In this document: positions 3,695 through 49,531 of the stretch, piece after piece
Numbering within the stretch: position 1 is the stretch's first letter
Layout: each line of letters starts with the position of its first letter
Source: Candidatus Omnitrophota bacterium
GTDB taxonomy: Bacteria; Omnitrophota; Gorgyraeia; Zapsychrales; Fredricksoniimonadaceae
DNA: 59,232 bases
Assembly: GCA_002753465.1 (NCBI GenBank)
Contig: PEAF01000006.1
Location: 1-59,232, forward strand
Direction of reading: 5' to 3'
Program-made: the position numbers and the translations under genes
Notes under the pieces: model-generated
What the model saw: only the letters and a program-made list of their open reading frames with translations
Database searches by the model: none
Told to the model about the DNA's origin: nothing

Positions 3695-4768
3695 ATGAAA
3701 TTAAATAAACTATTTATCTTTTTTATATTATTACTTATCGGTGCTCCTGTGGCCGCGCGAGCGCAGGATGCTGCCGTCGTGCCTGACAAGGATGCCGGTC
3801 AGCCTGCAGGCATGGAGCAGGTTTTGCCTCAGTGGAAATCTTCTTTAGGTGAGATCCAGCGGGCTTCAGCGGCATTGCTCGAGTCCAATTCGGCCCTGAC
3901 GGCTGAGCATAATCAGGTTAAGCAGGAATTGGAGCAATTGCAGGCCAAGATCGATGCCGAGCGCACCGGGAATGCCAAGATGGCTGATGAAATAGCTCAG
4001 TGGCAGGCCAAAGGGCGCCAGGCTGGCGACCCTGTTGAGATAGCGCGTGTTAAAGCTTTGCTGGCCCAGCGCGAACTTGAGGTCAAAGAGCAGCAGGACG
4101 CATTGGCGGCCGCCAAGTTACGCCGCGGCAGCGCGGAGAGCCATGCCGCGGTGATGCGTGTGCAGGTGGCTGACCTGGCGGTTGTGGCTAAGATGCATGA
4201 AGTTGATATGAAGGCGCAGAGCGGTGTCCGCATTGAAGAGGTTCGGGCGGAAACAGAGCGCGTGAAAGACCGTACGGCCATTACGGCCGAGCAGATACGC
4301 CTGCTAGGAGAAAAAACAGCTGAACTGGCGGCGTTGAAGACCCCTTATTTGCCGCAGGCACGTGAAATGGTCCGTGTCAACGCAGAGCTTAAGGGGCGGG
4401 TGGCTTCTTTGTCGTCCATGAAAGAGCAGGCTCTGGCCGAGATGTCCCAGCTTGATGCGGCCAAGGGTTTGGCTAATGCCGATGTGCGCGTTCAGCGGTT
4501 GCGCCAGTTGCTGGCCCAGCGGGATGAGATGCAGGCCCATTTAAAAGACAATACGGCTAAACTTGAAGCATTGAACACCCTTAAGCCGGAAGAGCTTGTA
4601 GACCCCATGACCGACGATGAGGCGCAGGCTCAGAAGATCGAGCGTCAAAATGCTTTTATTGAAGATGAGATCGGTAACTTGCGCGAGAACATCGCCCTGT
4701 TGGAATATAAGGTCACGACGCTTGAGCGCTATGACGGCCGTAATAAACCGGTGAGCAAAGTTAAATAG
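3695..4768 (+). CDS. Secreted coiled-coil protein of unknown function
   Basis: Signal peptide MKLNKLFIFFILLLIGAPVAARAQD, followed by ~330 aa of A/E/Q/K/L-rich heptad-like sequence. ATG 3695 is preferred over the track's GTG 3689. Confidence 0.7.
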   Translation: MKLNKLFIFFILLLIGAPVAARAQDAAVVPDKDAGQPAGMEQVLPQWKSSLGEIQRASAALLESNSALTAEHNQVKQELEQLQAKIDAERTGNAKMADEIAQWQAKGRQAGDPVEIARVKALLAQRELEVKEQQDALAAAKLRRGSAESHAAVMRVQVADLAVVAKMHEVDMKAQSGVRIEEVRAETERVKDRTAITAEQIRLLGEKTAELAALKTPYLPQAREMVRVNAELKGRVASLSSMKEQALAEMSQLDAAKGLANADVRVQRLRQLLAQRDEMQAHLKDNTAKLEALNTLKPEELVDPMTDDEAQAQKIERQNAFIEDEIGNLRENIALLEYKVTTLERYDGRNKPVSKVK

Positions 4769-9087: not shown

Positions 9088-10359
9088 ATGCTGATACGAA
9101 AACGCTCTGCCCAGTCAGTTTTGGAATATGCGGTGATGGCTGCCGTCGTCGCTGCTGCCGTTATCTTCGGCGGGCCCGTCCTTATCCGCTCCATCAATGC
9201 GCATTTTAAGATCATGGATAATAACGCGACGGATGCCATGCAGGAGCATATCAGGCAGTCCGGACCTTTGGCGACGACAACAAACTGTTCATGCTCCCCG
9301 GATAATGATAATCCTACGGTATGGTCACCCGGTAATTGCGGTATCGGCGGATGCACCAAGTTACAGCGCTATCGTTATCGCCAGTGCACCCCGTTGCTGT
9401 GCCGCAAGGAGGGGGCTTGCGTTGAGGAACCCTCTTGTTGTGATGAGGTTACTCTTTTAGATTGCGGCACCACACTTCCGGGTAATTGCACCACGCGATC
9501 AGCCATACATCCTTCTTTTACAGGCAAGGTCGATTTCGGGACTTGCGCGGGAACAAATGATTGCGCGATCGGTGAGAAGATTGCCAAAGTAACATGCGGT
9601 GCCGTTGGCGGTACGACAGCGGATTTTTATGCCTGCAAGAATGAGCACCCGGCGTGCTACCCGGATTGTGTGGCGAGATATGGTGAGGATAACTCAACGC
9701 AATGCACGGCTTTTGCCCGCAGCGACCTGTACCGTGAAGTGGCTCACCGTTTGTCGAGTACCGATACGCCGGTACGAGGTCAGTCTTTTTATACCGCGGC
9801 GGAGAATCCTAACGGCGTGGGAGCTTATAAGCTGGATATGGCTTTCGTCCACGGGGTCGGTTCCTGTGATACGGCTACCCCCAGATATTGCGAGAATTAT
9901 TGCACCAATTGTCGTATCCCGAATTCGTCGGGTACAAGCTGTGTGGTATGGTCTTGCAATCCTAATCCTCCTATACCGCTGACGGTGGCTAGGAACGCGC
10001 CTGTCAGTACTACGGTTGACCCGGGAGATGCGAGTATAGGGACTTTTAAGGTAACGGCGTATGCGGATGACCTCGATCTGGGGGTTGCGTGTTTCAATGC
10101 AGACGGGACCATCAATCAGCAGGCCGGCAACAGGCATCTGGGTTCATGTCCCGGCGATGCGTCCATTTTGCCCGTATCGGTCAAAGGGGTGACATGGTGT
10201 TACAGCGCTCGCATGATGAGTTTGGGCACGCATGCACAGGTCTCTTGTATAGGTAATTACGCCTATGTTCAGTTTTGGGCAGGCCCCGGTATTCCGGCAG
10301 ATGGGTGGAACCCAACGCCCACCATCGGATATCAGGCTTGCCGCTTGCCTTCATCCTAA
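9088..10359 (+). CDS. Cysteine-rich protein with an Flp/type IVb-pilin-like N-terminal segment
   Basis: AAGGAGA Shine-Dalgarno. The N-terminus is MLIRKRSAQSVLEYAVMAAVVAAAVIFGG (basic head, EY, hydrophobic helix). The remaining ~370 aa contain about 29 Cys by my count. Confidence 0.7.
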   Translation: MLIRKRSAQSVLEYAVMAAVVAAAVIFGGPVLIRSINAHFKIMDNNATDAMQEHIRQSGPLATTTNCSCSPDNDNPTVWSPGNCGIGGCTKLQRYRYRQCTPLLCRKEGACVEEPSCCDEVTLLDCGTTLPGNCTTRSAIHPSFTGKVDFGTCAGTNDCAIGEKIAKVTCGAVGGTTADFYACKNEHPACYPDCVARYGEDNSTQCTAFARSDLYREVAHRLSSTDTPVRGQSFYTAAENPNGVGAYKLDMAFVHGVGSCDTATPRYCENYCTNCRIPNSSGTSCVVWSCNPNPPIPLTVARNAPVSTTVDPGDASIGTFKVTAYADDLDLGVACFNADGTINQQAGNRHLGSCPGDASILPVSVKGVTWCYSARMMSLGTHAQVSCIGNYAYVQFWAGPGIPADGWNPTPTIGYQACRLPSS

Positions 10360-12026: not shown

Positions 12027-12056
12027 AATGAATTGCCAAGGCTGCTGGCATCTGGG

Positions 12057-12337
12057 ATATCATTCGCTCACCTCGGCCGTTATGCGTGAATCAAATATCG
12101 CTTAAATTCCCTTCGGCATACTTTGTGGCTCAGACAGTGGAAACAGCTTTTTCAGAAAAAGACATTGTTGAAAGCTTGGTTTCCAAACTCGCCACGGCAG
12201 TATGCCTTCGGTCATTAGCGATATTTGCTAGGCCGTAATAGCTGTGGCGTTAGGACCGTGAGGGATGTCATGAAGCGAACGTTGAGGCCATCTTACCGTT
12301 ATTATTAGAAAAAGATGGCCGAGGTGAGCGAATGACA
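12057..12337. repeat. Family-A hairpin element, copy 1, nested in a larger 281-nt hairpin that fills the thiG-thiH spacer
   Basis: Perfect 19-bp inverted repeat 12060-12078 / 12317-12335. Inner 11-bp stem 12092-12102 / 12217-12227. Invariant core blocks at 12128-12152 and 12170-12192. Confidence 0.6.
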
Positions 12338-12360
12338 TTCCTCATGGTCCAGCCACAGTA

Positions 12361-13137
12361 TCAATCGTTTGAAAATAAAAACCCAGTCAAGGGTGACGAT
12401 GCGTCGCCTGTTGTTTTCTGCATCGGTAATCCGCTTAAATATCCGGCGCGACCGGCTTCAACCGCTTGCGCGAAGGCTTTGGCGATCAAGGACGGGTTGT
12501 CCGCGATAGCGACCGCGGTATTCACCAAAACGGCGTCTGCCCCCATTTCCATGGCTGCACAGGCCTGCGATGGTGCACCGATGCCGGCATCCACAATAAT
12601 AGGAATGTCGATCTCATCGATCAGCACCTGGATCATGTCTTTCGTGCGCAATCCCTGGTTTGAGCCAATGAATGATCCCAGCGGCATGACCGCGGCGGCG
12701 CCAGCTTCGACCAGGCGGCGGGCTACGTAAAGATCCGGTGTGACATACGGTAGAACAATAAAACCTTCCGCGACCAATATTTTAGTGGCCGCGATGGTGG
12801 CCTCATTGTCCGGCAAAAGATATTTTGAGTCATTGATCACTTCGATCTTGATCCAATTGCCCTGGCCGGATGCTTTGGCCAGCCGGGCGAGGCGCACGGC
12901 TTCTTCAGCGGTCCTGGCGCCGGATGTGTTGGTCAGCAGGGTTATGCCTTCGGGGATGTATTCCAGGATATTCTCTGGCGTACGTTCCAAGTCAATGCGG
13001 CGCAGGGCGACCGTTACGATCTGTGTCCCGGAAGCAATGATGCTGGACTTAAGTTCAGCCTTATTTCTGAATTTTCCGGTACCTAATAAAAAACGTGAGG
13101 TGAATGTTTTTCCACCCAGAGAGAACATATCATCCAT
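12361..13137 (-). CDS. thiG: Thiazole synthase ThiG
   Basis: Full-length ThiG-like sequence ([32 protein letters not shown]). Confidence 0.95.
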
Positions 13138-13340: not shown

Positions 13341-13395
13341 ATGGGGGACATATTAGAATAGGGTGGGTTAAAAAGCAAGTCTTCCCTGCGTCATA

Positions 13396-13546
13396 AATGT
13401 TTCGCCAAGCTATAACCCTTGTTCATGCCCTGTGGCTCAGACAGTCCTCGCGCATCCGTTTTTGAGGGATGTTGAATGAGGGTTGAAAACGGATGGCTGC
13501 GGAACTCGCCCTTAGGGCATGAACGGCGGGTTGCTTGGCGAACATT
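13396..13546. repeat. Family-B hairpin element (related to family A through the GCTCAGACAGT / AACTCGCC loops)
   Basis: Outer stems AATGTTTCGCCAAGC / GCTTGGCGAACATT and GTTCATGCCCT (13421-13431) / AGGGCATGAAC (13514-13524). Loop motifs at 13435-13445 and 13503-13510. Inner helix CATCCGTTTT (13453-13462) / AAAACGGATG (13486-13495). Confidence 0.55.
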
Positions 13547-13608
13547 AGAGATGCACTTGCTCTGGGGCAGATTGGCATCAACCTTATATATATGATATCT
13601 TTTATACT

Positions 13609-16600
13609 ATGGTGGTATTTCGGTTATCGGTAAAACGGCTGGTTTCAGTTTGGGTCCTGTGTGCTTTTATGTTCACACAGGCCATGCCTGGCTATGCGCA
13701 AGGCATTCCGACGGCGGCTGCGGTGGCTGGGTTCACTCCGGTACAGTTGACCGGCATAGTTATCGACCCCAAAGACCCCTTTCATTTCGATTTCATCATT
13801 GATCGCGGACAGGATCAGTTGCCCGACGCGGCCAGGAAAGATATTTATACCAGTCAGGTCAAATATTTCCTTGCCGCCCTGGCCATTCCCGATAAGGACC
13901 AGTGGGTCAACCTTTCACCGTACGAACAAGACCGCATCATCCCGGATAATTTCGGGCTGACCTTGATGGGGCGGGACCTTCTCAGCCAGGATTATCTCTT
14001 AAAACAGATCGCTTCAAAAATGACCAGCCCCCAAACGTCTTTGGGCAAGGATTTCTGGGATAAGGTTTACGCCGCGGCACACGAAAAATTCGGCACAACA
14101 GATATTCCAACGGATGTGTTCAACAAGGTATGGATCATTCCTGAAAGCGCGGTGCTTTACGAGAAAGATGGGGCTGTTTATGTCCAGGAGCATCATCTGA
14201 AAGTTCTACTTGATAGCGATTACCTGGCATTGAACAAGTCGCGTGTAGCTGCGGGCACGTCTTCTGCTGCTCAGGAAATGATCAAAGATGTTATGCGCGA
14301 AGTGGTCATACCTGTTCTTGAGAAAGAGGTGAATGAGGGCAGGGATTTTGCACCGTTGCGCCAGGTCTACAGCGGGATGTTATTGGCGGTGTGGTACAAG
14401 CGCACACTTCAGGGATCTCTTCTTAATCAGGTTTATACCGACCGCGCCAGGGTCAGGGGCATCGACCAGGACCCTCAGGCAAACAAGGAAATATACGCGC
14501 GTTATGTCGAGGCTTTCCGTCAGGGGGCATTTAATCTGATCAAGGAGGATGTGGATCAGTTCACGCGTGAAGTTATTCCCCGGCGTTATTTCTCGGGTGG
14601 TTTGATGAATGCCGATGCGGCCATGTTCGAAGCGGGCAAGGTTCAGCACGTGCCTCGGTTGGCCGCAGATGCCTTAAGGAATCAGGAGGCGGTCTCTGTT
14701 CGTCTTGTTGAGCCGGGGAAAAATGTCAAAGTGTTCCAGGCTACGGCCCGCGGTATGCTGGCTAAGGCTGTCGGTGACCTGGCCCCCGGAGATCCCTGGG
14801 GCTCGGCGCGCATGTTGTTGGATCAGGTGAAGCTGGATATGCCGGCGGAGATCCTTGCCTATCAGCAAGAGATGTCCGGAGATGCCGTGCCGGCCAAGTG
14901 GGCGAGTTTGCTGGCGGGATATCAGGAAAAGGGGCAGAAAAAGAAGTTGGTGTTGAAAAAGATCGGCGAAAAGGCCGGGATAGTGGGCAACACGCTTTAT
15001 TATCCGTTTGCGGGTGGGGATACGGATGAGCCGTTTTCCATGTCAGCGAATATCAGGCATGTTATGGCGATGGGGCAGGAGCCTTTCGGATCTGTCGCGC
15101 AGATCAAGGAATTCTTTATGAAGGTAGGTTATGCGGACCGGTTCGGGGACCGTAACCGTGATGGTTATGATCATGGCGACCGTTTGTCTAAGCTGAATGC
15201 TGTGGCCGGGTTGGCCATGGCCAGGATCATTGTCACGCTGAAGGCCCGTGTTGTCGGTATCAAATATTTTGATATTGAGCAGAACGGGGATGTTCGGTTC
15301 AAGGACCTTGTCCAGGGCGATGTGCCGTCAGCAAAGAATGCGGTGATCGTTTTTCAGGACCGTGACGGGCAGATCAAAACCTTCTGGTATTGTCAGTACA
15401 ATGTGACCATGTTCGCGAAAGACATTGTGCGGCCTGATCCTTTTCGCCGCATGGTCAATCGGATGAAGTTTCAGACTTTGCTGATCAAGGCGGCACAAAG
15501 TTTTCTTTTCGAGGGTATTATCGGGTTGAATACGGCGGTGGTTGTCGGAGAGCCTGCCCGGCGCAACGATGCTTTGGTGCTGACCGACAGCCGGTTGGAC
15601 CATAAAATGGAACCTATCGCTTTTCGAGATATCCCGCAGCCTGTTTTTTCTGTTAAGCCATCATCGATTTCATGGCTGGGCTGGTCGCGCGTGGGTTATG
15701 GCGGCAGCGTTTATTACGGCCGTGCCCGCGCCATCCTGGCGGATGTCTGGAATGCGCCCCTGCAAGTCTGGAAAGCGCGCCCGTATGTGCCGGATATCGT
15801 CATAGACAATGTTGATGACGTTAAATATGAACCGTCCAAGTTGATGGATGGCGTGCTGTTCACGGAGTTAAAGGATCGTCATTACGAGGTTAAGTCGGAT
15901 GCTGTCAGGATCAATACGGAAGATGGCAATGAGATCGAGATAGTCCGGCAGGGCGCTGTAAGGTGGACCATGAGGAATGTGGTTGATATCGAGGTATCAC
16001 CGCGTGATAAGGTGGCCAGGATCTATTACGATGAGAATAATGAATGGCGCGAAGCACGGCTGGACCTTAATACAGGAGCGTTTACGTCGCAAAGTTTGTG
16101 GGATTCTTTAGCGCAGGTTGATATGGCTCAAACGCGGGAGCGAACCGCCGGAGATCCGTTGCAAAGAGCGCGGGAGTTTTTGAAGGCGCAGCGGTTGGAT
16201 ATGCCCCGCGAGCTTGAAAAATGGCAGGCCATGCTTCGTCAGGCGCCGGCAGATTCTGTTTTAGGTAAGGAGTTGGCCGTTCTGCGCCGAGAGAATGAGG
16301 TGAAGACGGATGCTCTTGTTGAGGCGGGGCAGGAGATCAATGGCCAGATAAAGGCAGGGGGTGTTCTGCCGAATGATTTAACGGGCGAGGTCGGATATTA
16401 TCCTTTTGGTGGAAGTGATTTTGATGAGCCGGCGCGCCTGGCCGGGCAGTGGAAGGATCTGATCGTCATGGGGCAGGAGCCCTTCGGCAGTCGCGGCATT
16501 ATCAACCTTTTCTTTGTTAAAGGTAACCGCATTGTCAATACGCCTGGCCGTGGGTTTAATGTAAATGATGTGCGGGAACAATTTGGATTCAAGAAGAAGA

Positions 16601-19600
16601 GTTTTGATGAGCACGAAAACCTTAAGAAATTGAAGTATGTCGGTGTGAGGGCGCTGGGCCGCATCATAACTTATCTTGAGGGCGAGGTTGTTGGGATCAA
16701 GTATTTTGATCTTGACCGTGAGGGTAATGTTAATTTTGTCGAGTCAGGCTCTTCACAGGCGAGGACTAATGCTGTTGTTGTGTTCAAGGATAAAGATGGT
16801 CAGGAGCGCCGGTGTTGGTATTTTCAGCATAGCCTTGAAGCCAGGGTGAGCGCTATTTCCGAGCAGGTGCCTTTCAGGGCTTTTATCAACCGGGCTTCTT
16901 TTCAGTTTATGATCATCAAGGCCGCGCAGAGTGATCTGTTCGAGGGGATTTTAGGTTTGAATACGTATACGGTTGTTGGCCGTCCTGCGAAAAGAAATAA
17001 TGCCCTTGTTCTGGCGGATCAGCGTACGGCGCATCCGACATACGGCCGGGATTATGGCATCGTGGTCGATCAACAGCCTGTGTTTAAAGATGTGCCGCGC
17101 AAATATGTTTTCGGGGGCGTGCCATACGGGTATGGGTACAAGCTCTTTTATGCGCCGGTGTCTGCATTGGCAACGCCATTTACAGCTCCTTCTGATGTTG
17201 TCGGGTACGCTCCTTATGCCCCGGATATTAAAATGGAATACGCGGGCAGTGTCGATGAAAATGCGCCGCGGGTCTTGCAAGGCGTTACCATTTCGCGCGA
17301 CGGGGACTATTATTCCATTAGAAAAGGAAATGTGCGGCTGGAGACAAAGCCGAGGAATACGCTGGTCTATGCCGTTGACGGCAAAGAGGTTGTTTTAAGC
17401 GGTGTTTCCGATGTTCATGTATATATGAGCAAGTCTTTGGTCCTTGTTTATTATTTTGCGGATGGGGCCTGGCGTGAAGGGCAGCTTTCATTACTGGACG
17501 GGGTTTTTAAAACAAAGATGCTTCAGGCGGCCCGCATTGCGGCCGGAGAAGACGCGGCGCAGGCTGACGATGTGCCATCGCGGCAGGCCTGGGACCCTTT
17601 AAAAAGGGCGCAGGAGGCGTTAAAGGAACAGTCATTGACGATGTCTGCGGGATTATCGCAGTGGCAGGCTATCGTCCGCGACCCTGCAGGCCCTTTGGCG
17701 TCAACGATCCGTCAGATCAGAAAAGACAACAGGGTTTATGCCGCGAAGCTGCATCAGGCCGGGCATAAGATGCACATGCCCGATGGCGTTATCTATTATC
17801 CGTTCGGCGGCATGGATGCGGCGGATCCTTTTATGATGTCGGCGGGAATAACAGATGTTGTATCGATGGGGCATGAGGATTTCGGCAGTTTAAAGCAGAT
17901 CGATCAATTCTTCAGGACTGGCCATGCGCGTGCAGTTTCGGATGGCCTGCGTAATCCGGGGGGCTTCATGTTTGATCATTTGGGAGGGCGGGAGGGAAGT
18001 TTTGACTCTGTGGCTAATTATTGGGATCCCAGAAGGGCGAAGGGCTGGAAGGGCTTTGGCCAGACAGCTGTGGCGAGGATACTGACACTTTTGGAGGGGC
18101 GCATTGAGGGTGTTCAGTATTTTGTTCTGGATCCCAAGGGCGACATTCAGTTTGTTGACGCGGGGTCGAAGAAGGCCGGCGTTAACGCGGTAGTTGTCTT
18201 TTACGATAAGAACGGGAACGAGAAGCGTTTCTGGTATATGCGTCATTATGTTGGTTCGCAGATCGTGGATGTGCCCCGGACGCCCTTTGAATTGTTTATC
18301 CGAAAAGCTTCATTCCAGACTTTATTGATCAAGGCAGCCCAAAGTTGGTTGTTCGAAGGAGTGCAGGGGCTGAATGTGCAAGCTATTGTGCATGAGCCTG
18401 CTCGGCGGAACGGGGCGATGGTCATCACCGATATAAATATCCCCGATGATCCCTTTGGGTTTGGGACAGGCGCGCCGCAGCCTGTTTTCGCGCGTGTACC
18501 GCAGAGCCTGGATATGGGCGGCAGGTATCGTTTTGGTTATGGTAAGCACATTTTCTTTGCGCTGGCTGATAAATTGACGCGCCCTCAGGATGATCCCTTT
18601 TATACGATCGGCCGTAGGCTTTATCGTCCTGCTTTTGTAGCTGATGGTGACCGGCAGGTTATCTGGCGCCATTACCATAAGTTCTTTGGTGATGTGGCGG
18701 TGGAGGGGACAGACGAAAGCTTTGTTATTCATGCCGGGACGGTGCAGTTGTCGATCACGGGCGATAACCGCGTTGTGTTCAGAGAGAATAATGAAGTACG
18801 TAAAGCGTGGGCGCTCGTGACCGATGTTCAGCTGGACAGTCGTGGCGAGAGCGTGCTCATTTATTACTTTGATAAAGAGTCAGGATGGCATGAATCGCGC
18901 CTTGATCTTAAGGCCGGGACATGGATGACTAAAGCGCTGGATTTCAAAGGAATGATGCTGGCGGAGGAAGATGCGTTGCGCAATGTGTCTCCTGGCGATG
19001 AGAACGTCGCCGCTGATGTGCCTGGACTGGACGCTGACACGCGCGCACGGCTTGAGGTATTATTTTCAGATTTCTCCAAGCCGCTGGGGGATATGCAACG
19101 TGAGCTGCGTGCTATTTTCCCTCAGGGGGGTATTTCGCTGACCAAAGACGGGTTTCATTTTAACCGGGACAGGATGCCGGCGCCTGACGAGGTGTTGGGC
19201 ATGGCGATGCGGTATTTCCAGGGGTATAACATGGGCAACAGGGTGTTCACCGTGGCTGATTTTAATACAGAAGAGCGGGAGTTGGCCCGGCAGAATATCG
19301 TCAATGATGAAACGCCGTCGGAGATCAGCTCGAAATCTTACCAGGACCTTGAACTGCGGGAGAAGGATCAAATTTTTGAAGCCCTGGCCCGCCGTGTTCA
19401 GTCCGGCCGCATGCTGCATGTGGACCATCATTACGGGTATCATGTCCTGGCCCAGGCCAGCACAGCCGCCATGCTTTTGGATTTTGTCCGGTATCTTCAC
19501 GCGCACGGAAAGCAGGATACGCTCGGGCGCTTGAAAGACACGTTCATTTTTTCGGATCATTCGGATGTTGATATCATGCTCGCTAATTTTGTCCTGCGGC

Positions 19601-20586
19601 ATGCCGGTGATCAGGCTTTTCTGGAAGCTAACCGTGAGGCGATCATCAATGCCGTCAGTATTAATGATTACGCACTGGATAAAGGGTCCAGGGCGGGGGT
19701 TATTCTCTATGATGTTCTTGTGGCGATGGGAGAGGATGTTAAAGCCCATGGCTTTGATGAAGAAAAGATGATGGCCGTCGTTGAGGATGCGCTTGTCTTT
19801 GCCAATCAGAACGCTGACCTTGAAGAGGCTGCCTTGTTCGCACGCGCCGGATCATTGTATGCGGGGCAGAGTGCCGCGGTGGTTGATTATTTTTTGAAAG
19901 GCGTGGTCCGTTTCCTGAAAGCTTCGCAGGTCTTTAACAAGATGATGGCCGCTTCAGATGGCCATCTTAATGACCGGCAGATCGTTCCCGGGCAGATGCG
20001 TATCTTGGACAGGGTGCTTTTTTGTTATGTGCGCGATCATGATGCTGAGCTCGACAATACGGACATTGCCCGTATCATTTCATCCAGTCCTCACTACCGG
20101 AAAATGTTAGACGGTGTGCTGGCGATCGCCACGACCAATCCGGTTCCCGGTCAGGCGGGTGACAGGCGGTTCAAGATCCGCGCCCTGGACACCCTGGACC
20201 TTTCCCCCGAGTTTTGGAATGAGCTGGGCAAGGCAACGGTAGCGTATGGGACCCACCCGGGTGGCCGTTCCATGGGTGGCGGTCTCGGGAAAGAGGCGTT
20301 GAAGGATCTTTTGCCGTTAGATGTGGCCAAGATCGCGGTGTCGATCAGTTCTCTGGTTGAAAAGCACGCCCGTATCCAGGATGATTCGCTTAAGGCCAAG
20401 GGTGGTATTGATCTTGGTGATGGACATTTAAATATGATCATCAGACGGGATAGCAACAATATCCCGTTGCCGGTGGCGCAGCAGGGCATCGAGCGCTTTA
20501 AGATCGATGGCCTTGTACCTGAGATCCTGGACATACGCCCCGCGGCATCACTGCCTCTTTTTAGCCAGTCTTCGTCGGCACGTTAA
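13609..20586 (+). CDS. Giant (2325 aa) secreted modular protein of unknown function
   Basis: Uninterrupted ORF with a signal-like N-terminus MVVFRLSVKRLVSVWVLCAFMFTQAMPGYAQG. It has three internal ~450-480-aa modules and a distinct ~545-aa C-terminal domain. No family recognised. Confidence 0.85.
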   Translation: MVVFRLSVKRLVSVWVLCAFMFTQAMPGYAQGIPTAAAVAGFTPVQLTGIVIDPKDPFHFDFIIDRGQDQLPDAARKDIYTSQVKYFLAALAIPDKDQWVNLSPYEQDRIIPDNFGLTLMGRDLLSQDYLLKQIASKMTSPQTSLGKDFWDKVYAAAHEKFGTTDIPTDVFNKVWIIPESAVLYEKDGAVYVQEHHLKVLLDSDYLALNKSRVAAGTSSAAQEMIKDVMREVVIPVLEKEVNEGRDFAPLRQVYSGMLLAVWYKRTLQGSLLNQVYTDRARVRGIDQDPQANKEIYARYVEAFRQGAFNLIKEDVDQFTREVIPRRYFSGGLMNADAAMFEAGKVQHVPRLAADALRNQEAVSVRLVEPGKNVKVFQATARGMLAKAVGDLAPGDPWGSARMLLDQVKLDMPAEILAYQQEMSGDAVPAKWASLLAGYQEKGQKKKLVLKKIGEKAGIVGNTLYYPFAGGDTDEPFSMSANIRHVMAMGQEPFGSVAQIKEFFMKVGYADRFGDRNRDGYDHGDRLSKLNAVAGLAMARIIVTLKARVVGIKYFDIEQNGDVRFKDLVQGDVPSAKNAVIVFQDRDGQIKTFWYCQYNVTMFAKDIVRPDPFRRMVNRMKFQTLLIKAAQSFLFEGIIGLNTAVVVGEPARRNDALVLTDSRLDHKMEPIAFRDIPQPVFSVKPSSISWLGWSRVGYGGSVYYGRARAILADVWNAPLQVWKARPYVPDIVIDNVDDVKYEPSKLMDGVLFTELKDRHYEVKSDAVRINTEDGNEIEIVRQGAVRWTMRNVVDIEVSPRDKVARIYYDENNEWREARLDLNTGAFTSQSLWDSLAQVDMAQTRERTAGDPLQRAREFLKAQRLDMPRELEKWQAMLRQAPADSVLGKELAVLRRENEVKTDALVEAGQEINGQIKAGGVLPNDLTGEVGYYPFGGSDFDEPARLAGQWKDLIVMGQEPFGSRGIINLFFVKGNRIVNTPGRGFNVNDVREQFGFKKKSFDEHENLKKLKYVGVRALGRIITYLEGEVVGIKYFDLDREGNVNFVESGSSQARTNAVVVFKDKDGQERRCWYFQHSLEARVSAISEQVPFRAFINRASFQFMIIKAAQSDLFEGILGLNTYTVVGRPAKRNNALVLADQRTAHPTYGRDYGIVVDQQPVFKDVPRKYVFGGVPYGYGYKLFYAPVSALATPFTAPSDVVGYAPYAPDIKMEYAGSVDENAPRVLQGVTISRDGDYYSIRKGNVRLETKPRNTLVYAVDGKEVVLSGVSDVHVYMSKSLVLVYYFADGAWREGQLSLLDGVFKTKMLQAARIAAGEDAAQADDVPSRQAWDPLKRAQEALKEQSLTMSAGLSQWQAIVRDPAGPLASTIRQIRKDNRVYAAKLHQAGHKMHMPDGVIYYPFGGMDAADPFMMSAGITDVVSMGHEDFGSLKQIDQFFRTGHARAVSDGLRNPGGFMFDHLGGREGSFDSVANYWDPRRAKGWKGFGQTAVARILTLLEGRIEGVQYFVLDPKGDIQFVDAGSKKAGVNAVVVFYDKNGNEKRFWYMRHYVGSQIVDVPRTPFELFIRKASFQTLLIKAAQSWLFEGVQGLNVQAIVHEPARRNGAMVITDINIPDDPFGFGTGAPQPVFARVPQSLDMGGRYRFGYGKHIFFALADKLTRPQDDPFYTIGRRLYRPAFVADGDRQVIWRHYHKFFGDVAVEGTDESFVIHAGTVQLSITGDNRVVFRENNEVRKAWALVTDVQLDSRGESVLIYYFDKESGWHESRLDLKAGTWMTKALDFKGMMLAEEDALRNVSPGDENVAADVPGLDADTRARLEVLFSDFSKPLGDMQRELRAIFPQGGISLTKDGFHFNRDRMPAPDEVLGMAMRYFQGYNMGNRVFTVADFNTEERELARQNIVNDETPSEISSKSYQDLELREKDQIFEALARRVQSGRMLHVDHHYGYHVLAQASTAAMLLDFVRYLHAHGKQDTLGRLKDTFIFSDHSDVDIMLANFVLRHAGDQAFLEANREAIINAVSINDYALDKGSRAGVILYDVLVAMGEDVKAHGFDEEKMMAVVEDALVFANQNADLEEAALFARAGSLYAGQSAAVVDYFLKGVVRFLKASQVFNKMMAASDGHLNDRQIVPGQMRILDRVLFCYVRDHDAELDNTDIARIISSSPHYRKMLDGVLAIATTNPVPGQAGDRRFKIRALDTLDLSPEFWNELGKATVAYGTHPGGRSMGGGLGKEALKDLLPLDVAKIAVSISSLVEKHARIQDDSLKAKGGIDLGDGHLNMIIRRDSNNIPLPVAQQGIERFKIDGLVPEILDIRPAASLPLFSQSSSAR
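14791..16152 (+). repeat. Giant-protein tandem module 1 (454 aa)
   Basis: Collinear motifs DPWGSARMLLDQVKLDMP, YYPFAGGDTDEP, MGQEPFGS, VVGIKYFD, NAVIVFQDRDG, LLIKAAQSFLFEGIIGLN, EPARRNDALVLTD, IYYDENNEWREARLDL. Confidence 0.7.
16153..17592 (+). repeat. Giant-protein tandem module 2 (480 aa)
   Basis: DPLQRAREFLKAQRLDMP, YYPFGGSDFDEP, MGQEPFGS, VVGIKYFD, NAVVVFKDKDG, MIIKAAQSDLFEGILGLN, RPAKRNNALVLAD, VYYFADGAWREGQLSL. Confidence 0.7.
17593..18948 (+). repeat. Giant-protein tandem module 3 (452 aa)
   Basis: DPLKRAQEALKEQSLTMS, YYPFGGMDAADP, MGHEDFGS, IEGVQYFV, NAVVVFYDKNG, LLIKAAQSWLFEGVQGLN, EPARRNGAMVITD, IYYFDKESGWHESRLDL. Confidence 0.7.
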
Positions 20587-21390: not shown

Positions 21391-21522
21391 CCTTTGCTTT
21401 CTTAGGCCTCTGGCACGCCTGGCTGCTCAGACAGTGGAAACAGCTTTTTCTGAAAAAGGAATTATGGAAAGCTTGGTTTCCAAACTCGCAGCTGCGGCAT
21501 GCCTTCGGCCTTGAAGCAAAGG
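21391..21522. repeat. Family-A hairpin element, copy 2
   Basis: Outer stem CCTTTGCTT (21391-21399) / AAGCAAAGG (21514-21522). Invariant core blocks at 21425-21449 and 21467-21489. Begins 7 nt after the 21384 stop. Confidence 0.6.
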
Positions 21523-21558
21523 ACAACAGGATTAATTTAAATTACAGGGAATATTTTT

Positions 21559-24033
21559 ATGCCGTACACCACCAATGATATCAGGCGCGTTGAAGAAAAA
21601 TGGCAGTCCTACTGGGAGACACATAAGATCTTCAAGGCCGAGATGAATGAAAAGAAGCAGAAGTACTATGTGCTCGAGATGTTCCCTTATCCATCCGGCA
21701 AGATCCACATGGGCCATGTACGCAATTACACGATCGCGGATGTGATCGCCCGTTACAAGATGATGCGCGGGTTCAATGTGCTGCATCCGATGGGTTATGA
21801 CGCTTTCGGTCAGCCGGCCGAGAATGCGGCCATTAAGCGTGGCGTTTCTCCGTCGGAATGGACCTATAAATGCATTGATGATATGCGTATCGGCCTGAAG
21901 AAAATGGGCTTTTCCTACGATTGGGACCGTGAGTTGGCGACGTGCGATACGTCCTATTATACGTGGAATCAGTGGATATTCCTGAAAATGGCCGAGCGCG
22001 GGCTGGCATACAAGAAGGCCTCGCCGGTCAATTGGTGCCCTTCATGCGCGACCACATTGGCGAATGAAGAGGTCATTGACGGGGCGTGCTGGCGTTGCAA
22101 GAACCAGGTTGAGCAGAAGGATCTGGACCAATGGTATCTGAAGATCACGCATTACGCTGATGAACTTTTAGAGGATCTTAAGAAGCTGAATAACTGGCCG
22201 TCGCGCGTGGTGGCCATGCAGGAGAATTGGATCGGCAAGAGTTTCGGCGCTGATATATATTTTAAAGTTAAGGGTTCCGATGCCATGATCACCGTATTTA
22301 CGACACGGCCGGACACTATTTTCGGTGCGACTTATGTGACGCTTGCGCCGGAGCATCCCATGGTCCGTAAGTTGGCCAAGGGCACGGCGCAGGAAGCGGC
22401 CGTCGAAGCTTTTATTAAGAAATCGATTAACGTATCTAAGTCGCCGCGCATGTCGGGTGAAGAGCGTAAAGAGGGTGTTTTTACGGGCGGCTATGCGGTC
22501 AATCCCGTTAATGGTGAGACCATCCCTGTCTGGACGGGTGACTATGTGCTGATGGGTTATGGTACGGGTGCCATTATGGCTGTGCCGACGCACGATCAGC
22601 GTGATTTTGAATTCGCCCGTGAACATAAATTGCCGATGCGTATCGTCATACAAGATCCGGCGAATAAAGATATTACTCCCGAACAGATGACGCAGGCTTA
22701 TGTGGATGAAGGTCTTCTTGTCAACTCCGCTCATTTCGACGGTACCCCTAATGAAGAAGCGAAGCAGAAGATCGCACAGTGGATGGAAAAAGGTCACATG
22801 GGGCGCGTGAGCGTTCACTGGCGTCTGCGCGACTGGCTTATTTCCCGGCAGCGTTATTGGGGTACGCCTATCCCGATGATCTATTGCACGGGCTGCGGCA
22901 TTGTACCGGTGCCGTATGCCGATCTTCCGATCAAATTGCCAGAGAATGCGCCCATCACGGGCGAAGGCGGCAGCCCTCTGGCCAAGGTGCCGGAGTTCGT
23001 GAATGTGAAATGCCCGAATTGCGGCGGTGAAGCTCGTCGCGAGACAGATACCATGGCCACGTTCTTTGATTCATCATGGTATTTCCTGCGTTATTGCTCG
23101 GCGAGGAATGATCGCGAGATCTTTGATGCCAAAGAAGCTAAGTACTGGATGCCGGTCGATCAGTACATCGGTGGTATTGAGCACGCGATCTTGCATTTAC
23201 TGTATTCACGCTTCTTTACTAAATTCCTTAAGGATATCGGCATGGTCGATGTTCCCGAGCCTTTTGACCGGCTGCTCACGCAGGGCATGGTCCTGAAGGA
23301 TGGCGAGGTCATGTCCAAGTCCAAGGGCAATGTGGTCGACCCTGATGAAGTTATTGCGAAGTTCGGCGCGGATACGCTGCGCATGTTCATCTTGTTCGCC
23401 GCGCCGCCCGAAGATCAGCTGGAATGGAATCCAGCGGGGCTTGAAGGCAACTGGCGTTTCATTAACCGTGTCTGGAATTCAGTCGAGACGCGTTATGCGA
23501 AGGGTGCTGTCGCGGGCGCCGTGCTGGATGCTCAGGACAAAAAGTTAGAATTTGAACGTCATGGCGCGGTCAAGAAAGTAACGGATAGCATGGAGGGCGG
23601 ATTTAAGTTCAACACGGCTATTTCAGGCGTCATGGTCCTTGTGAATGCCGTCGATAAATATAAGGTCACGGTGGGCAATGCGCATCAACAGGCGATGTAC
23701 AATCGTGCGATCGAAACGGCTGTTCAGCTTTTGGCACCCTTCATTCCGCATGCGGCTGAAGAGCTCTGGCAGATGATGGGTAAGACCGACCGTACTGTCG
23801 CAGGAGTGGCCTGGCCGACCTATGACGAGGCGGCGCTTAAGACGGATACGGTCAAGATGGTGGCGCAGGTCAACGGCAAGGTGCGCGCTGAATTTGAAGT
23901 GCCGTGTGATGCGGATGAGGCTTATTTGCGCCCGATCGTGCTGGCGGATGAGAGTGTTCAGCGCCATATCGCCGGCAAAGAGATCAAGAAATTCATCGTT
24001 GTTAAAAATAAGCTTGTGAGTATTGTCATCTGA
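21559..24033 (+). CDS. leuS: Leucine--tRNA ligase
   Basis: Class I motifs [11 protein letters not shown] (HIGH) and VMSKSKGN (KMSKS); full-length bacterial LeuS architecture. Confidence 0.97.
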
Positions 24034-24052
24034 TCGAGCTGTTAATTGGATG

Positions 24053-24186
24053 TTTCCCTGGTTTTCAAGGCCTCAGGATGCCTGGCTGCTCAGACAGTGG
24101 AAACAGCTTTTTCTAAAAAGGGATTATGGAAAGCTTGGTTTCCAAACTCGCAGCTGCGGCATGCCCTCAGCCTTGAACCAGGGAAA
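24053..24186. repeat. Family-A hairpin element, copy 3
   Basis: Outer stem TTTCCCTGGTT (24053-24063) / AACCAGGGAAA (24176-24186). Invariant core blocks at 24088-24112 and 24129-24151. Begins 20 nt after the leuS stop. Confidence 0.6.
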
Positions 24187-24193
24187 GATTGTT

Positions 24194-24373
24194 AAATGTA
24201 CGCGGTTTTGCTTAGGGCCTGATACAGCTTCTAAAGCCGACGTAGCTCGGCCGAACGGGCATGGATTTGGCCGAAGGCCAAAGAGTGAGGACGAGCTCAG
24301 AGTGCAGCCGGCCTCGCAGGGGCCGGCAAACGATCGGCGTAGAAGCGTATTAGGCCCTAAGAGCAAAACATTT
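24194..24373. other. Multi-stem structured element E (closing helix plus at least three internal hairpins)
   Basis: Closing stem AAATGT..GTTTTGCTTAGGGCCT (24194-24220) / AGGCCCTAAGAGCAAAACATTT (24352-24373). Internal hairpins TTGGCC-GAA-GGCCAA (24267-24282) and GCCGGCC-TCGCAGG-GGCCGGC (24308-24328). Further pairs GATACAGCTTCT/AGAAGCGTAT and AGCTC/GAGCT. Confidence 0.45.
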
Positions 24374-26684: not shown

Positions 26685-26872
26685 CGGGTCCTGCCGCTTT
26701 CAGTGATCCCGGACCATCTTTCGAAGACGTCTTGCTGACAGCATCTGATGAATGGTGGTTTTACTGAGCTTGAAGTAAGGAATGACATCGGATTAGCGAA
26801 GACCGTTGAAGGGATGAGGTAAGCCGTCAACTTCAGATGATCCGGGATCACTTCCGCGTCACCCGTTAAACA
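26678..26872. other. 195-nt imperfect palindrome / long hairpin element C
   Basis: Perfect 12-bp closing stem TGTTTAACGGGT (26678-26689) / ACCCGTTAAACA (26861-26872). Second helix CAGTGATCCCGGACCATCT / AGATGATCCGGGATCACTT. Overlaps the EndoQ-like stop codon. Confidence 0.5.
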
Positions 26873-47970: not shown

Positions 47971-48104
47971 CTATATTAAAAAAGTGCCGGTTGATTGCCT
48001 TCTAGGAAAATATTGTGGAAGCAATCAATCGGCATAAACTTATCTTTATAAAAGTACAGTGGAAAGCATTGGATCGGCAGTAGCTAGTGTTGAGGCTTTT
48101 AGCT

Positions 48105-48150
48105 AGGACTGTCTGAGCCACAGGGCATGAACAAGGGCTATAGCTTGTCG
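48105..48150 (-). repeat. Half copy of the family-B element (5' arm only, inverted orientation)
   Basis: The reverse complement matches 13403-13448 at 44 of 46 positions (CGACAAGCTATAGCCCTTGTTCATGCCCTGTGGCTCAGACAGTCCT). No complementary 3' arm (GTTCATGCCCT on the plus strand) was found in the neighbouring 170 nt. Confidence 0.55.
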
Positions 48151-48210
48151 AATGTGATCACCCATGAATACAGGTCGAAGCTCTTGAGCGTGCGTTATAT
48201 GTGCTAGAGA

Positions 48211-49315: not shown

Positions 49316-49388
49316 CGCCGATGTAGCTCAGTTGGTAGAGCAGCGCATTCGTAATGCGCAGGTCGGAGGTTCAACCCCTCTCGTCGGC
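49316..49388 (+). tRNA. tRNA-Thr (anticodon CGT)
   Basis: Hand-folded cloverleaf: acceptor GCCGATG/CGTCGGC (one G-U pair), D arm GCTC-AGTTGGTA-GAGC, anticodon arm GCGCA-TTCGTAA-TGCGC, T arm GGAGG-TTCAACC-CCTCT. 73 nt. Confidence 0.9.
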
Positions 49389-49395
49389 TTATATT
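49371..49395 (+). repeat. 25-bp direct repeat, copy 1 (T-loop to 3' end of tRNA-Thr plus 7 nt)
   Basis: CAACCCCTCTCGTCGGCTTATATTT, identical to 49507-49531. Confidence 0.9.
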
Positions 49396-49506
49396 TTTTA
49401 TACTCGTAAGGGGGTTGAACTGAGCCCCGCTGGATGCGACGAGTAGGAGCATCCTTAAGGCGGGGCGAATGTCTGACCCGCAAGGAGCGAAGCGACTGAA
49501 GGGCAA
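49396..49506 (+). other. 111-nt structured insert between the two tRNA-Thr 3'-end repeats (element D)
   Basis: Hairpin CCCCGC (49424-49429) ... GCGGGG (49460-49465) enclosing GGATGC/GCATCC. GGGGGTTG (49409-49416) is complementary to CAACCCCT in both repeat copies. Contains AATGTCTGACC, which resembles the reverse complement of the family-A/B loop motif. Confidence 0.4.
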
Positions 49507-49531
49507 CAACCCCTCTCGTCGGCTTATATTT
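49507..49531 (+). repeat. 25-bp direct repeat, copy 2
   Basis: CAACCCCTCTCGTCGGCTTATATTT, identical to 49371-49395. Confidence 0.9.

Follow-up and report, generated by a model that had tools for sequence, protein, structure and literature searches.

We examined a family of intergenic hairpins in a 59,232-nt stretch of DNA (contig PEAF01000006.1, hereafter the window), whose source, judged from LeuS homologues, is Candidatus Omnitrophota. The hairpins carry no gene and are probably small, non-autonomous palindromic mobile DNA elements of this lineage. They most likely act like REPINs, the hairpin-forming elements built of repetitive extragenic palindromic (REP) units, or like miniature inverted-repeat transposable elements (MITEs), with the unusual property that a lopsided internal loop is conserved and the ends are not.

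The original prediction described three look-alike hairpins of ~135 nt (12092-12227, 21391-21522 and 24053-24186), with an invariant core and outer stems that are unlike yet complementary. These copies, which we call type A, all lie on the plus strand. The first (A1, 136 nt; 71.4 bits, E 6e-20) is located between thiG and a thiH-like gene; the second (A2, 132 nt) starts 6 nt past the stop codon of a beta-carbonic-anhydrase-like gene, 36 nt upstream of leuS; and the third (A3, 134 nt) lies 19 nt past the leuS stop codon, its stem reaching 24050-24189. The range first assigned to the family, 21391-24186, thus covers A2 and A3 and leaves out A1. The two invariant blocks were present where they had been placed: GCTCAGACAGTGGAAACAGCTTTTT and GAAAGCTTGGTTTCCAAACTCGC are identical in A1, A2 and A3 with a gap of 16-17 nt between them, and GGAAACAGCTTTTT and GAAAGCTTGGTTTCC each have exactly three perfect occurrences in the window, one per copy. 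With up to two mismatches, the window has 4 matches to a core 14-mer (0.40 expected) and 3 to a core 15-mer (0.13 expected); the string TCAGACAGT occurs 5 times against 0.19 expected. In A1, the internal loop is formed by TCAGACAGT on the 5' side (12130-12138) and (A)AACTC on the 3' side (12185-12190). The compensatory stem differences also proved real, since within type A, where homology is unambiguous, the 13 bp beside the loop differ between A1 and A2 by four double compensatory changes and one mismatch.

More members exist than the three copies first described. A type B copy was found in a 182-nt insert on the plus strand (B4, 13388-13569; hairpin proper 13400-13542). Its loop, GGC-TCAGACAGT-CC ... 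GG-AACTC-GCC, is the one found in type A, i.e., 5' TCAGACAGT opposite 3' AACTC, closed by G-C pairs, but its apical helix, its apex and every outer helix are unlike those of type A. A type B half copy on the minus strand (48105-48152), adjoining tRNA-Phe, consists of the left arm and TCAGACAGTCCT; it is 95.8% identical over 48 nt to 13401-13448 and breaks off directly after the loop motif. A degenerate member, W, forms a 98-nt hairpin on the minus strand beside A1 (12253-12350), sense to the thi operon. It reads GCTCA, then, with GACAGT missing, CCTCGGCC ... TTTTTCTAATAATAA ... GGCC..AACGTTCGC, and aligns with the type C hairpin of a relative described below. At 12049-12078 (plus strand), a fragment duplicates the 5' arm of W but is turned around relative to it (inverted repeat I1, 87% complementary). 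In total, the 59 kb hold four full copies, one half copy and one degenerate copy.

Further variants were found among syntenic contigs of Omnitrophota relatives, which we refer to as L044 (LeuS 93% to the window), L045 (88%), L046 (84%), L049 (83%), L047 (82%), L048 (81%) and L050-L052 (ThiG 93% to the window; L050 comes from the same sample as L044). The leuS-deoC gap of L047 holds, on the minus strand, a hairpin with the loop GC-TCAGACAGT-CC ... GG-AACTC-GC between wholly unlike helices (type C). L044 holds two type-B-like hairpins (L044a and L044b), 88% identical to each other, with an apex homologous to that of type B and a loop variant, GGC-TCAGGAG-CG ... CG-CAATTC-GCC. The two base pairs that follow and a second, small loop (CCTCG ... 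CTGCGG) are common to types B and C, and at the apex type C is similar to type A. The family falls into four subfamilies, types A, B, C and the L044 type, of which B, C and L044 have helix lengths and 2x3 loops in common. Because the loop is kept across types while the helices change, the conserved unit is the asymmetric loop region, and the stems are free to vary.

The predicted maintenance of a fold was borne out by this loop, which is invariant between helices without common sequence in types A and B of the window and in type C of L047. On either strand, each type A copy forms a single long hairpin, with a minimum free energy of -52 to -66 kcal/mol (z -4.9 to -6.9; 0/200 shuffles were as stable), and the folding energy is equal on both strands. 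To compare the members, the seven full ones (A1, A2, A3, B4, type C, L044a and L044b) were split into helices and loops, which were checked against the sequences. The resulting alignment has 49 pair columns, of which 34 show changes on both sides, and is 98.8% paired; since it was made from the structures, these figures are circular as a test of structure, and the non-circular evidence for the proposed fold is the loop invariance between non-homologous helices. Watson-Crick pairs make up 249 of the 253 stem cells, the exceptions being one G·U and three A·C-type mismatches; the two arms complement each other in the manner of DNA, without strand preference. Only the outermost helices are 100% paired. 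A covariance model built from the seven members (R1) retrieved each of them at 36-71 bits, and no further match was detected in the window (filters off), in the Caldilineaceae contig L001 discussed below, in L044-L052 or in viral contigs. A pseudoknot between loop and apex (TCAGA with TCTGA) was considered and rejected; it is possible in A2 only, and the TCTGA of the apex is lost in A1.

Relative to the direction of transcription, both orientations occur among the copies. The thi operon is encoded on the minus strand (thiS 13340-13140, thiG 13137-12361, thiH-like 12026-11022, thiF 11025-10423), so A1 is antisense to it. A1 had been placed just after the thiG stop codon, but it lies ~130 nt downstream of that stop, between thiG and the thiH-like gene. 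Type C is likewise antisense, and W is sense. In contrast, A2 and A3, which flank leuS (21559-24033), are both sense and, like L044a and L044b, are co-oriented with the flanking genes and placed directly after stop codons. The motif is on the G-rich strand in six of the seven intact copies; this bias is not significant, and it would be consistent with exposure on the lagging-strand template. A putative sigma-54 promoter in A2 (TGGCAC-N-GCTGC) was rejected, as its spacing is one off and it is missing from A1 and A3.

The original prediction had held that empty alleles would favor a mobile element over an RNA gene, and the orthologous sites in relatives were indeed empty. In L046 and L050, thiG overlaps thiH, and in L047 and L048 the two are separated by 10-19 nt. 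Compared with L050 (GGTTTTTTAT|ATGAATAAG), the window holds an extra 348-nt block (12027-12374) composed of A1, W and the W fragment, and this block gives ThiG a new C-terminus, FSND* in place of YE*. Similarly, leuS overlaps deoC (ATGA) in L049, and L048 has 7 nt between the two genes, whereas 359 nt, made up of A3 and a second element, Y, separate them in the window; this junction is occupied by differing elements in five genomes (the window, L044, L045, L046 and L047). The clearest site is upstream of thiS. L050 and L052 read ...GCAAGCCCTCCCT|GATTGGCATC... and L045 is similar to L050, whereas the window reads ...GCAAGTCTTCCCT|182 nt (13388-13569)|GATTGGCATC... The junction is clean, with no target duplication and no earlier palindrome, and the whole type B hairpin, including its outermost helices, is part of the insert. 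An apparent strain polymorphism between L050 and L051 turned out to be merely a difference in gene calling.

The mixed orientation, the Watson-Crick-only arms, the empty sites, the existence of subfamilies and the lack of duplication at a clean junction together argue for a DNA-level parasite that is copied via a folded single strand. The window encodes only housekeeping genes, and the elements would therefore be non-autonomous. On this reading they would spread as single-stranded DNA hairpins, whose invariant part is probably recognized by a protein encoded elsewhere in the genome. The recognized part would comprise the G-C-closed asymmetric loop (5' TCAGACAGT opposite 3' AACTC), a short helix and the second small loop above it, while the rest of the stem would need only to pair. 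In that case, compensated changes would accumulate in the stems, since copies unable to form the hairpin would not be propagated. The likeliest enzyme would be of a type that acts on folded single strands, e.g., HUH/Y1 transposases of the IS200/IS605-RAYT kind (RAYT, REP-associated tyrosine transposase). Any effects on host mRNA (processing, stability, polarity within the thi and leuS-deoC operons) would be incidental.

Several observations weigh against this interpretation. First, A2 and A3 are 93% identical over 115 nt and 96% over the central 99 nt, with sharp boundaries, and only these two have the subterminal TTCAAGGCC/GGCCTTGAA in common; their near-identity points to recent copying or homogenization, which in itself favors the interpretation. 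Despite this inner identity, their outermost helices are unrelated, each being perfectly paired (CCTTTGC/GCAAAGG in A2 vs TTTCCCTGG/CCAGGGAAA in A3), which simple copying and divergence fails to explain. Nested insertion into other hairpins, gene conversion between copies that lie close together, self-primed fill-in of the ends or imprecise template-switch copying are possible explanations. Second, the inner part is the most conserved and the ends are the least, opposite to the pattern in REPINs and ordinary MITEs. Third, flanking direct repeats are inconsistent: A3 is flanked by TGTTAA (6 bp; 24040-24045 and 24190-24195), A1 by GGCCGT[T/A]AT (8/9) and A2 by TAATT (5 bp), at varying distances, and B4 by none. 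Fourth, fragments with arbitrary ends are frequent; the half copy, the W-arm fragment and the final 16 nt of the B4 insert, which resemble the start of Y, fit imprecise copying as well as they fit transposition. Fifth, a Pfam search detected no transposase, integrase or reverse transcriptase in the 59-kb window, and none could be linked to the elements, so that the mobilizing enzyme is pure inference. In addition, the full members number only seven. Two 423-aa open reading frames (ORFs) in the window were considered in this context and are neither paralogues nor transposases.

A bolder form of the single-strand interpretation, which we consider unlikely though worth stating, is that the invariant loop GC-TCAGACAGT-SS ... 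SS-AACTC-GC, together with the second loop in types B and C, is the recognition or catalytic center of an undescribed mobility system. Such a system may be a hairpin-guided single-strand DNA transposition or recombination of Omnitrophota in which the ends are regenerated in each cycle, e.g., by self-primed fill-in; regeneration of this kind would explain the perfectly paired, copy-specific outer helices. Alternatively, it may be a mobile structured RNA, possibly self-cleaving.

Among known systems, the closest working analogue is REPIN/RAYT (PMC3116915, PMC3337134). REP units are 20-40 bp long with a GTAG or CGTC tag at one end (PMC3733652), and a REPIN has two highly conserved inverted end regions with a less conserved, hairpin-forming spacer between them (PMC3116915). 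Both are mobilized by RAYT (Y1 HUH) transposases as extragenic, non-autonomous elements, which form hairpins of ~100 nt in single-stranded DNA or mRNA (PMC3116915, PMC3337134, PMC3733652). The present family resembles REPINs in being extragenic, non-autonomous, multi-copy and hairpin-forming, in its compensatory stem changes and clustering, and in its decay to singlets and fragments; in both cases the element is non-coding, and a single gene at another place would be expected to encode the enzyme. In REPINs, however, the 16-mers or REPs at the ends are conserved and the spacer or apex is free, whereas here the ends vary most and the internal loop is invariant, and the arms are not built of short REP palindromes. 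Direct reading of the hairpin feet revealed no GTAG or CGTC at the base in six of seven members, only the B4 insert starting with G-CGTC, and no RAYT gene, which in REP-bearing genomes usually has the repeats on its flanks, was detected in the 59-kb window with Pfam. To our knowledge, no RAYT has been described in Omnitrophota.

Imperfect palindromes of 100-150 bp that form long RNA or DNA hairpins, and that lie in transcribed intergenic regions and within operons in either orientation, are familiar as ERIC/IRU in enterobacteria, Correia/NEMIS in Neisseria, RUP and BOX. In MITEs of the ERIC/Correia type, the terminal inverted repeats are conserved and the target duplication is fixed, typically to TA. 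The present family shares with them its small size, the lack of coding capacity, multiple copies, and presence or absence at orthologous sites, also within operons. It differs in that the outermost helices of A1, A2, A3, B4, C and L044a are all unlike, with no shared terminal inverted repeats, in that the B4 junction is clean and without duplication, and in that it has neither sequence similarity to ERIC, Correia, RUP or BOX nor a known parent insertion sequence; none with the same ends was found in the window. The family thus fails membership of both REP/REPIN and classical MITEs, because it has no GTAG/CGTC tag, its ends are unconserved and no duplication of fixed length is evident.

Recognition by structure plus a few unpaired or extrahelical bases, with free stem sequence, strand specificity and activity on the lagging-strand template, is the rule for integron attC sites and IS200/IS605 hairpins, which in this resemble the present family as interpreted here. 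IS200/IS605 elements make no target duplication, and their ends are two short hairpins on one strand, whereas the present element is a single 140-nt foldback. The attC boxes R''/R' (RYYYAAC/GTTRRRY) are not at the hairpin bases here, there is no integrase and no cassette array, and the neighbors are housekeeping genes.

A structured RNA with a host function, the preferred reading of the original prediction, now appears improbable. The hairpins would then be cis-acting mRNA elements (a processing site, a stabilizer or an atypical terminator) or a multi-copy small RNA, and the conserved loop would bind an RNA-binding protein or form a tertiary or catalytic motif. The loop motif kept between non-homologous helices in two species, the architecture common to types B, C and L044, and the sense position of most copies (A2, A3, L044a, L044b) straight after stop codons would all fit this proposal, and the loop is strongly strand-asymmetric, the covariance model scoring B4 at 69 bits on the plus strand vs 12 on the minus strand. 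The B- and C-type copies also hold GACAGUCCU, a string present in the classical hairpin-ribozyme substrate, which is no more than a lead. However, W is sense but A1 and type C lie antisense to the operons around them, both strands fold equally, and pairing is nearly purely Watson-Crick: G·U is nearly absent, with A·C mismatches at least as frequent. Close relatives have the same operons but no insertion at these sites, and the loop has no conserved pseudoknot partner. At the gathering threshold, Rfam gave two tRNAs only in the window and nothing in the relatives; at E<=10 over the copies it gave noise only, with no match to the hairpin ribozyme, and the core, as first supposed, matches no Rfam family. 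No conserved promoter was found around the copies. By direct reading, no copy is followed by a T-tract, in agreement with the earlier claim, and a terminator-like site was predicted at none of them; the combination that defines an intrinsic terminator, a G+C-rich stem-loop and then a T-tract, is thus found at no copy. A micro-ORF in the type A core (MESLVSKLAAAAC...) was also rejected, being unconserved in A1, B and C.

Just as improbable is nested insertion, in which a mobile core of ~112 nt (TTCAAGGCC ... GGCCTTGAA in A2 and A3) enters the apical loop of existing terminators or older palindromes, so that the outermost helices would be derived from the target. This would account for the fall of A2/A3 identity from ~93% to nothing exactly at the outermost helix and for perfect pairing in the outermost helices alone. 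Moreover, A3 minus the common part reads TTTCCCTGGTT-TTCG-AACCAGGGAAA, a stem with a UUCG-type loop, and families do nest or abut: A1 lies within W pieces, a family X element in a larger hairpin of L047, and a family Z element in an outer repeat (see below for X and Z). For the type B copy the idea, which had been raised in the original prediction, is refuted, as its empty site has no hairpin and its outer helices belong to the insert; the left outer arm of type B is also common to the half copy. The leuS/deoC and thiG/thiH junctions, which house two of the three type A copies, are spacer-free in the relatives examined, hence offering no terminator to enter, and no outer helix recurs elsewhere or is followed by a T-tract.

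The weakest alternative dispenses with a dedicated transposase: hairpin-prone segments would be copied by replication template switching or illegitimate recombination at microhomologies, and their arms would be kept or extended as perfect complements by intrastrand template switching of the quasipalindrome type, template-switch correction of imperfect inverted repeats being an established mechanism (PMC7202029), so that the "covariation" would be a mutational by-product; the variable flanking direct repeats (0 to 9 bp), the unconserved termini, the almost purely Watson-Crick arms and the arbitrary ends of truncated or composite copies (the half copy, the W-arm fragment, the B4 tail and a Y fragment in L047) agree with it, but we think it very unlikely, as it leaves unexplained a 9x5 loop that is never "corrected" yet invariant across subfamilies and species, the repeated arrival at distant loci, and the common subfamily architecture.

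Searches beyond these genomes returned no additional members. Plasmid and phage collections gave no match, in viral contigs the generic motif and the 16-17-mers of types A and B matched by chance only and the covariance model had no match, and genome and metagenome scans revealed no true relatives. The single match in the genome collection, a contig of a Caldilineaceae metagenome-assembled genome (L001/L032), holds, at 4200-4290 on the minus strand of L001, identical in L032, the 21-mer CTCAGACAGTGGAAACAGCTT followed directly by AACTCGC, with TGGAAAGCTTG 45 nt further on. These are pieces of the type A core, scrambled, with no hairpin and no covariance-model match, and the contig is not a family member; the pieces together are too much for chance, and horizontal transfer, mis-binning or a decayed copy may account for them. 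Seventeen metagenome contigs that share the 19-mer searched for are copies of a reverse-transcriptase gene (RVT_1) and unrelated to the family: because the match lies inside the RVT_1 coding frame, it is chance amplified by copy number. This reverse-transcriptase family (L020-L042; JGI metagenomes Ga0056124, Ga0209052, Ga0209679 and others) is highly repeated and often pseudogenized.

Other elements of a similar kind accompany the family. Element Y (24205-24369, plus strand), ~165 nt long, lies directly after A3. It belongs to a different family, is multi-branched, has the conserved ends GTTTTGC/GCAAAAC, and is flanked in the window by 8-bp direct repeats, TTGTTAAA; its minimum free energy is -90 kcal/mol, its internal hairpins covary, and Rfam gave no match. 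Y was also found in L046 (~9340-9470, minus strand), in L044 (11045-11130, cut by the contig end) and, as a fragment, in L047 (~12700-12760). Its loci differ between relatives, and Y or a piece of it abuts an A/B/C family member in three genomes (the window, L044 and L047), which, under the bolder interpretation above, suggests a two-part unit. The Y segment GCCGACGTAGCTC resembles the 5' end of the tRNA-Thr of the window, a likeness that is not significant (p ~0.07). Descent of the motif or of Y from tRNA was rejected, as alignment scores were not above those of shuffles (p 0.07-0.9).

Family Z is a hairpin of ~165 nt found at different loci in two species (window 26695-26860; L045 12517-12663) with 74% identity. 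In the window it is enclosed by a 12-bp inverted repeat (TGTTTAACGGGT/ACCCGTTAAACA), the left arm of which holds the stop codon of the upstream gene. Family X is a long hairpin, CTGCCGTCYGCTACGGTTT ... CTCCGACAAAnGACGTCGGAG, present in L045 (2256-2400), L047 (12507-12650) and L046 (9540-9674, minus strand, and 12526-12615). Some of the copies in these three relatives occupy the thiG-thiH and leuS-deoC junctions; the window has no X element.

Some features of the surrounding DNA were also recorded. About 70 nt downstream of the type B half copy, a strong minus-strand hairpin (47975-48034; GCCGATTGATTGC ... GCAATCAACCGGC) is followed by a T-run; a short transcript of the minus strand beside tRNA-Phe may include the half copy. 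The end of tRNA-Thr (49317-49389) and the sequence downstream of it are repeated exactly over 25 nt (49372-49396 and 49507-49531), 135 nt apart. The repeats bracket a short G+C-rich insert, and the arrangement looks like an att-type scar of a small integrated element. A 423-aa cysteine-rich protein (9088-10359) with a pilin-like hydrophobic N-terminus and no Pfam match is encoded between era and thiF (adjacent in L047). A giant ORF (13609-20586, 2325 aa) contains 1398-nt internal repeats; its counterparts have 1868 aa in L045 and, on the other strand, 1697 aa in L048, and none was found in L046, L047 or L049.

We know of nothing established about intragenomic mobile DNA in the uncultivated Omnitrophota. 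Structured intergenic insertions of at least four families (A/B/C, X, Y and Z) occur in the window and its relatives. The A/B/C family combines covariation and conserved loops, probably without marking an RNA gene, which calls for caution in RNA-motif discovery pipelines. If the loop is a protein recognition site, the hairpin could serve as bait to find the enzyme, perhaps a new hairpin-specific protein acting on DNA or RNA. In the organisms themselves, genes that in relatives overlap or lie next to each other (thiG/thiH and leuS/deoC) are repeatedly separated by the insertions, and even the C-terminus of ThiG has been rewritten, with consequences for gene calling, operon prediction and strain typing in metagenome-assembled genomes of Omnitrophota.

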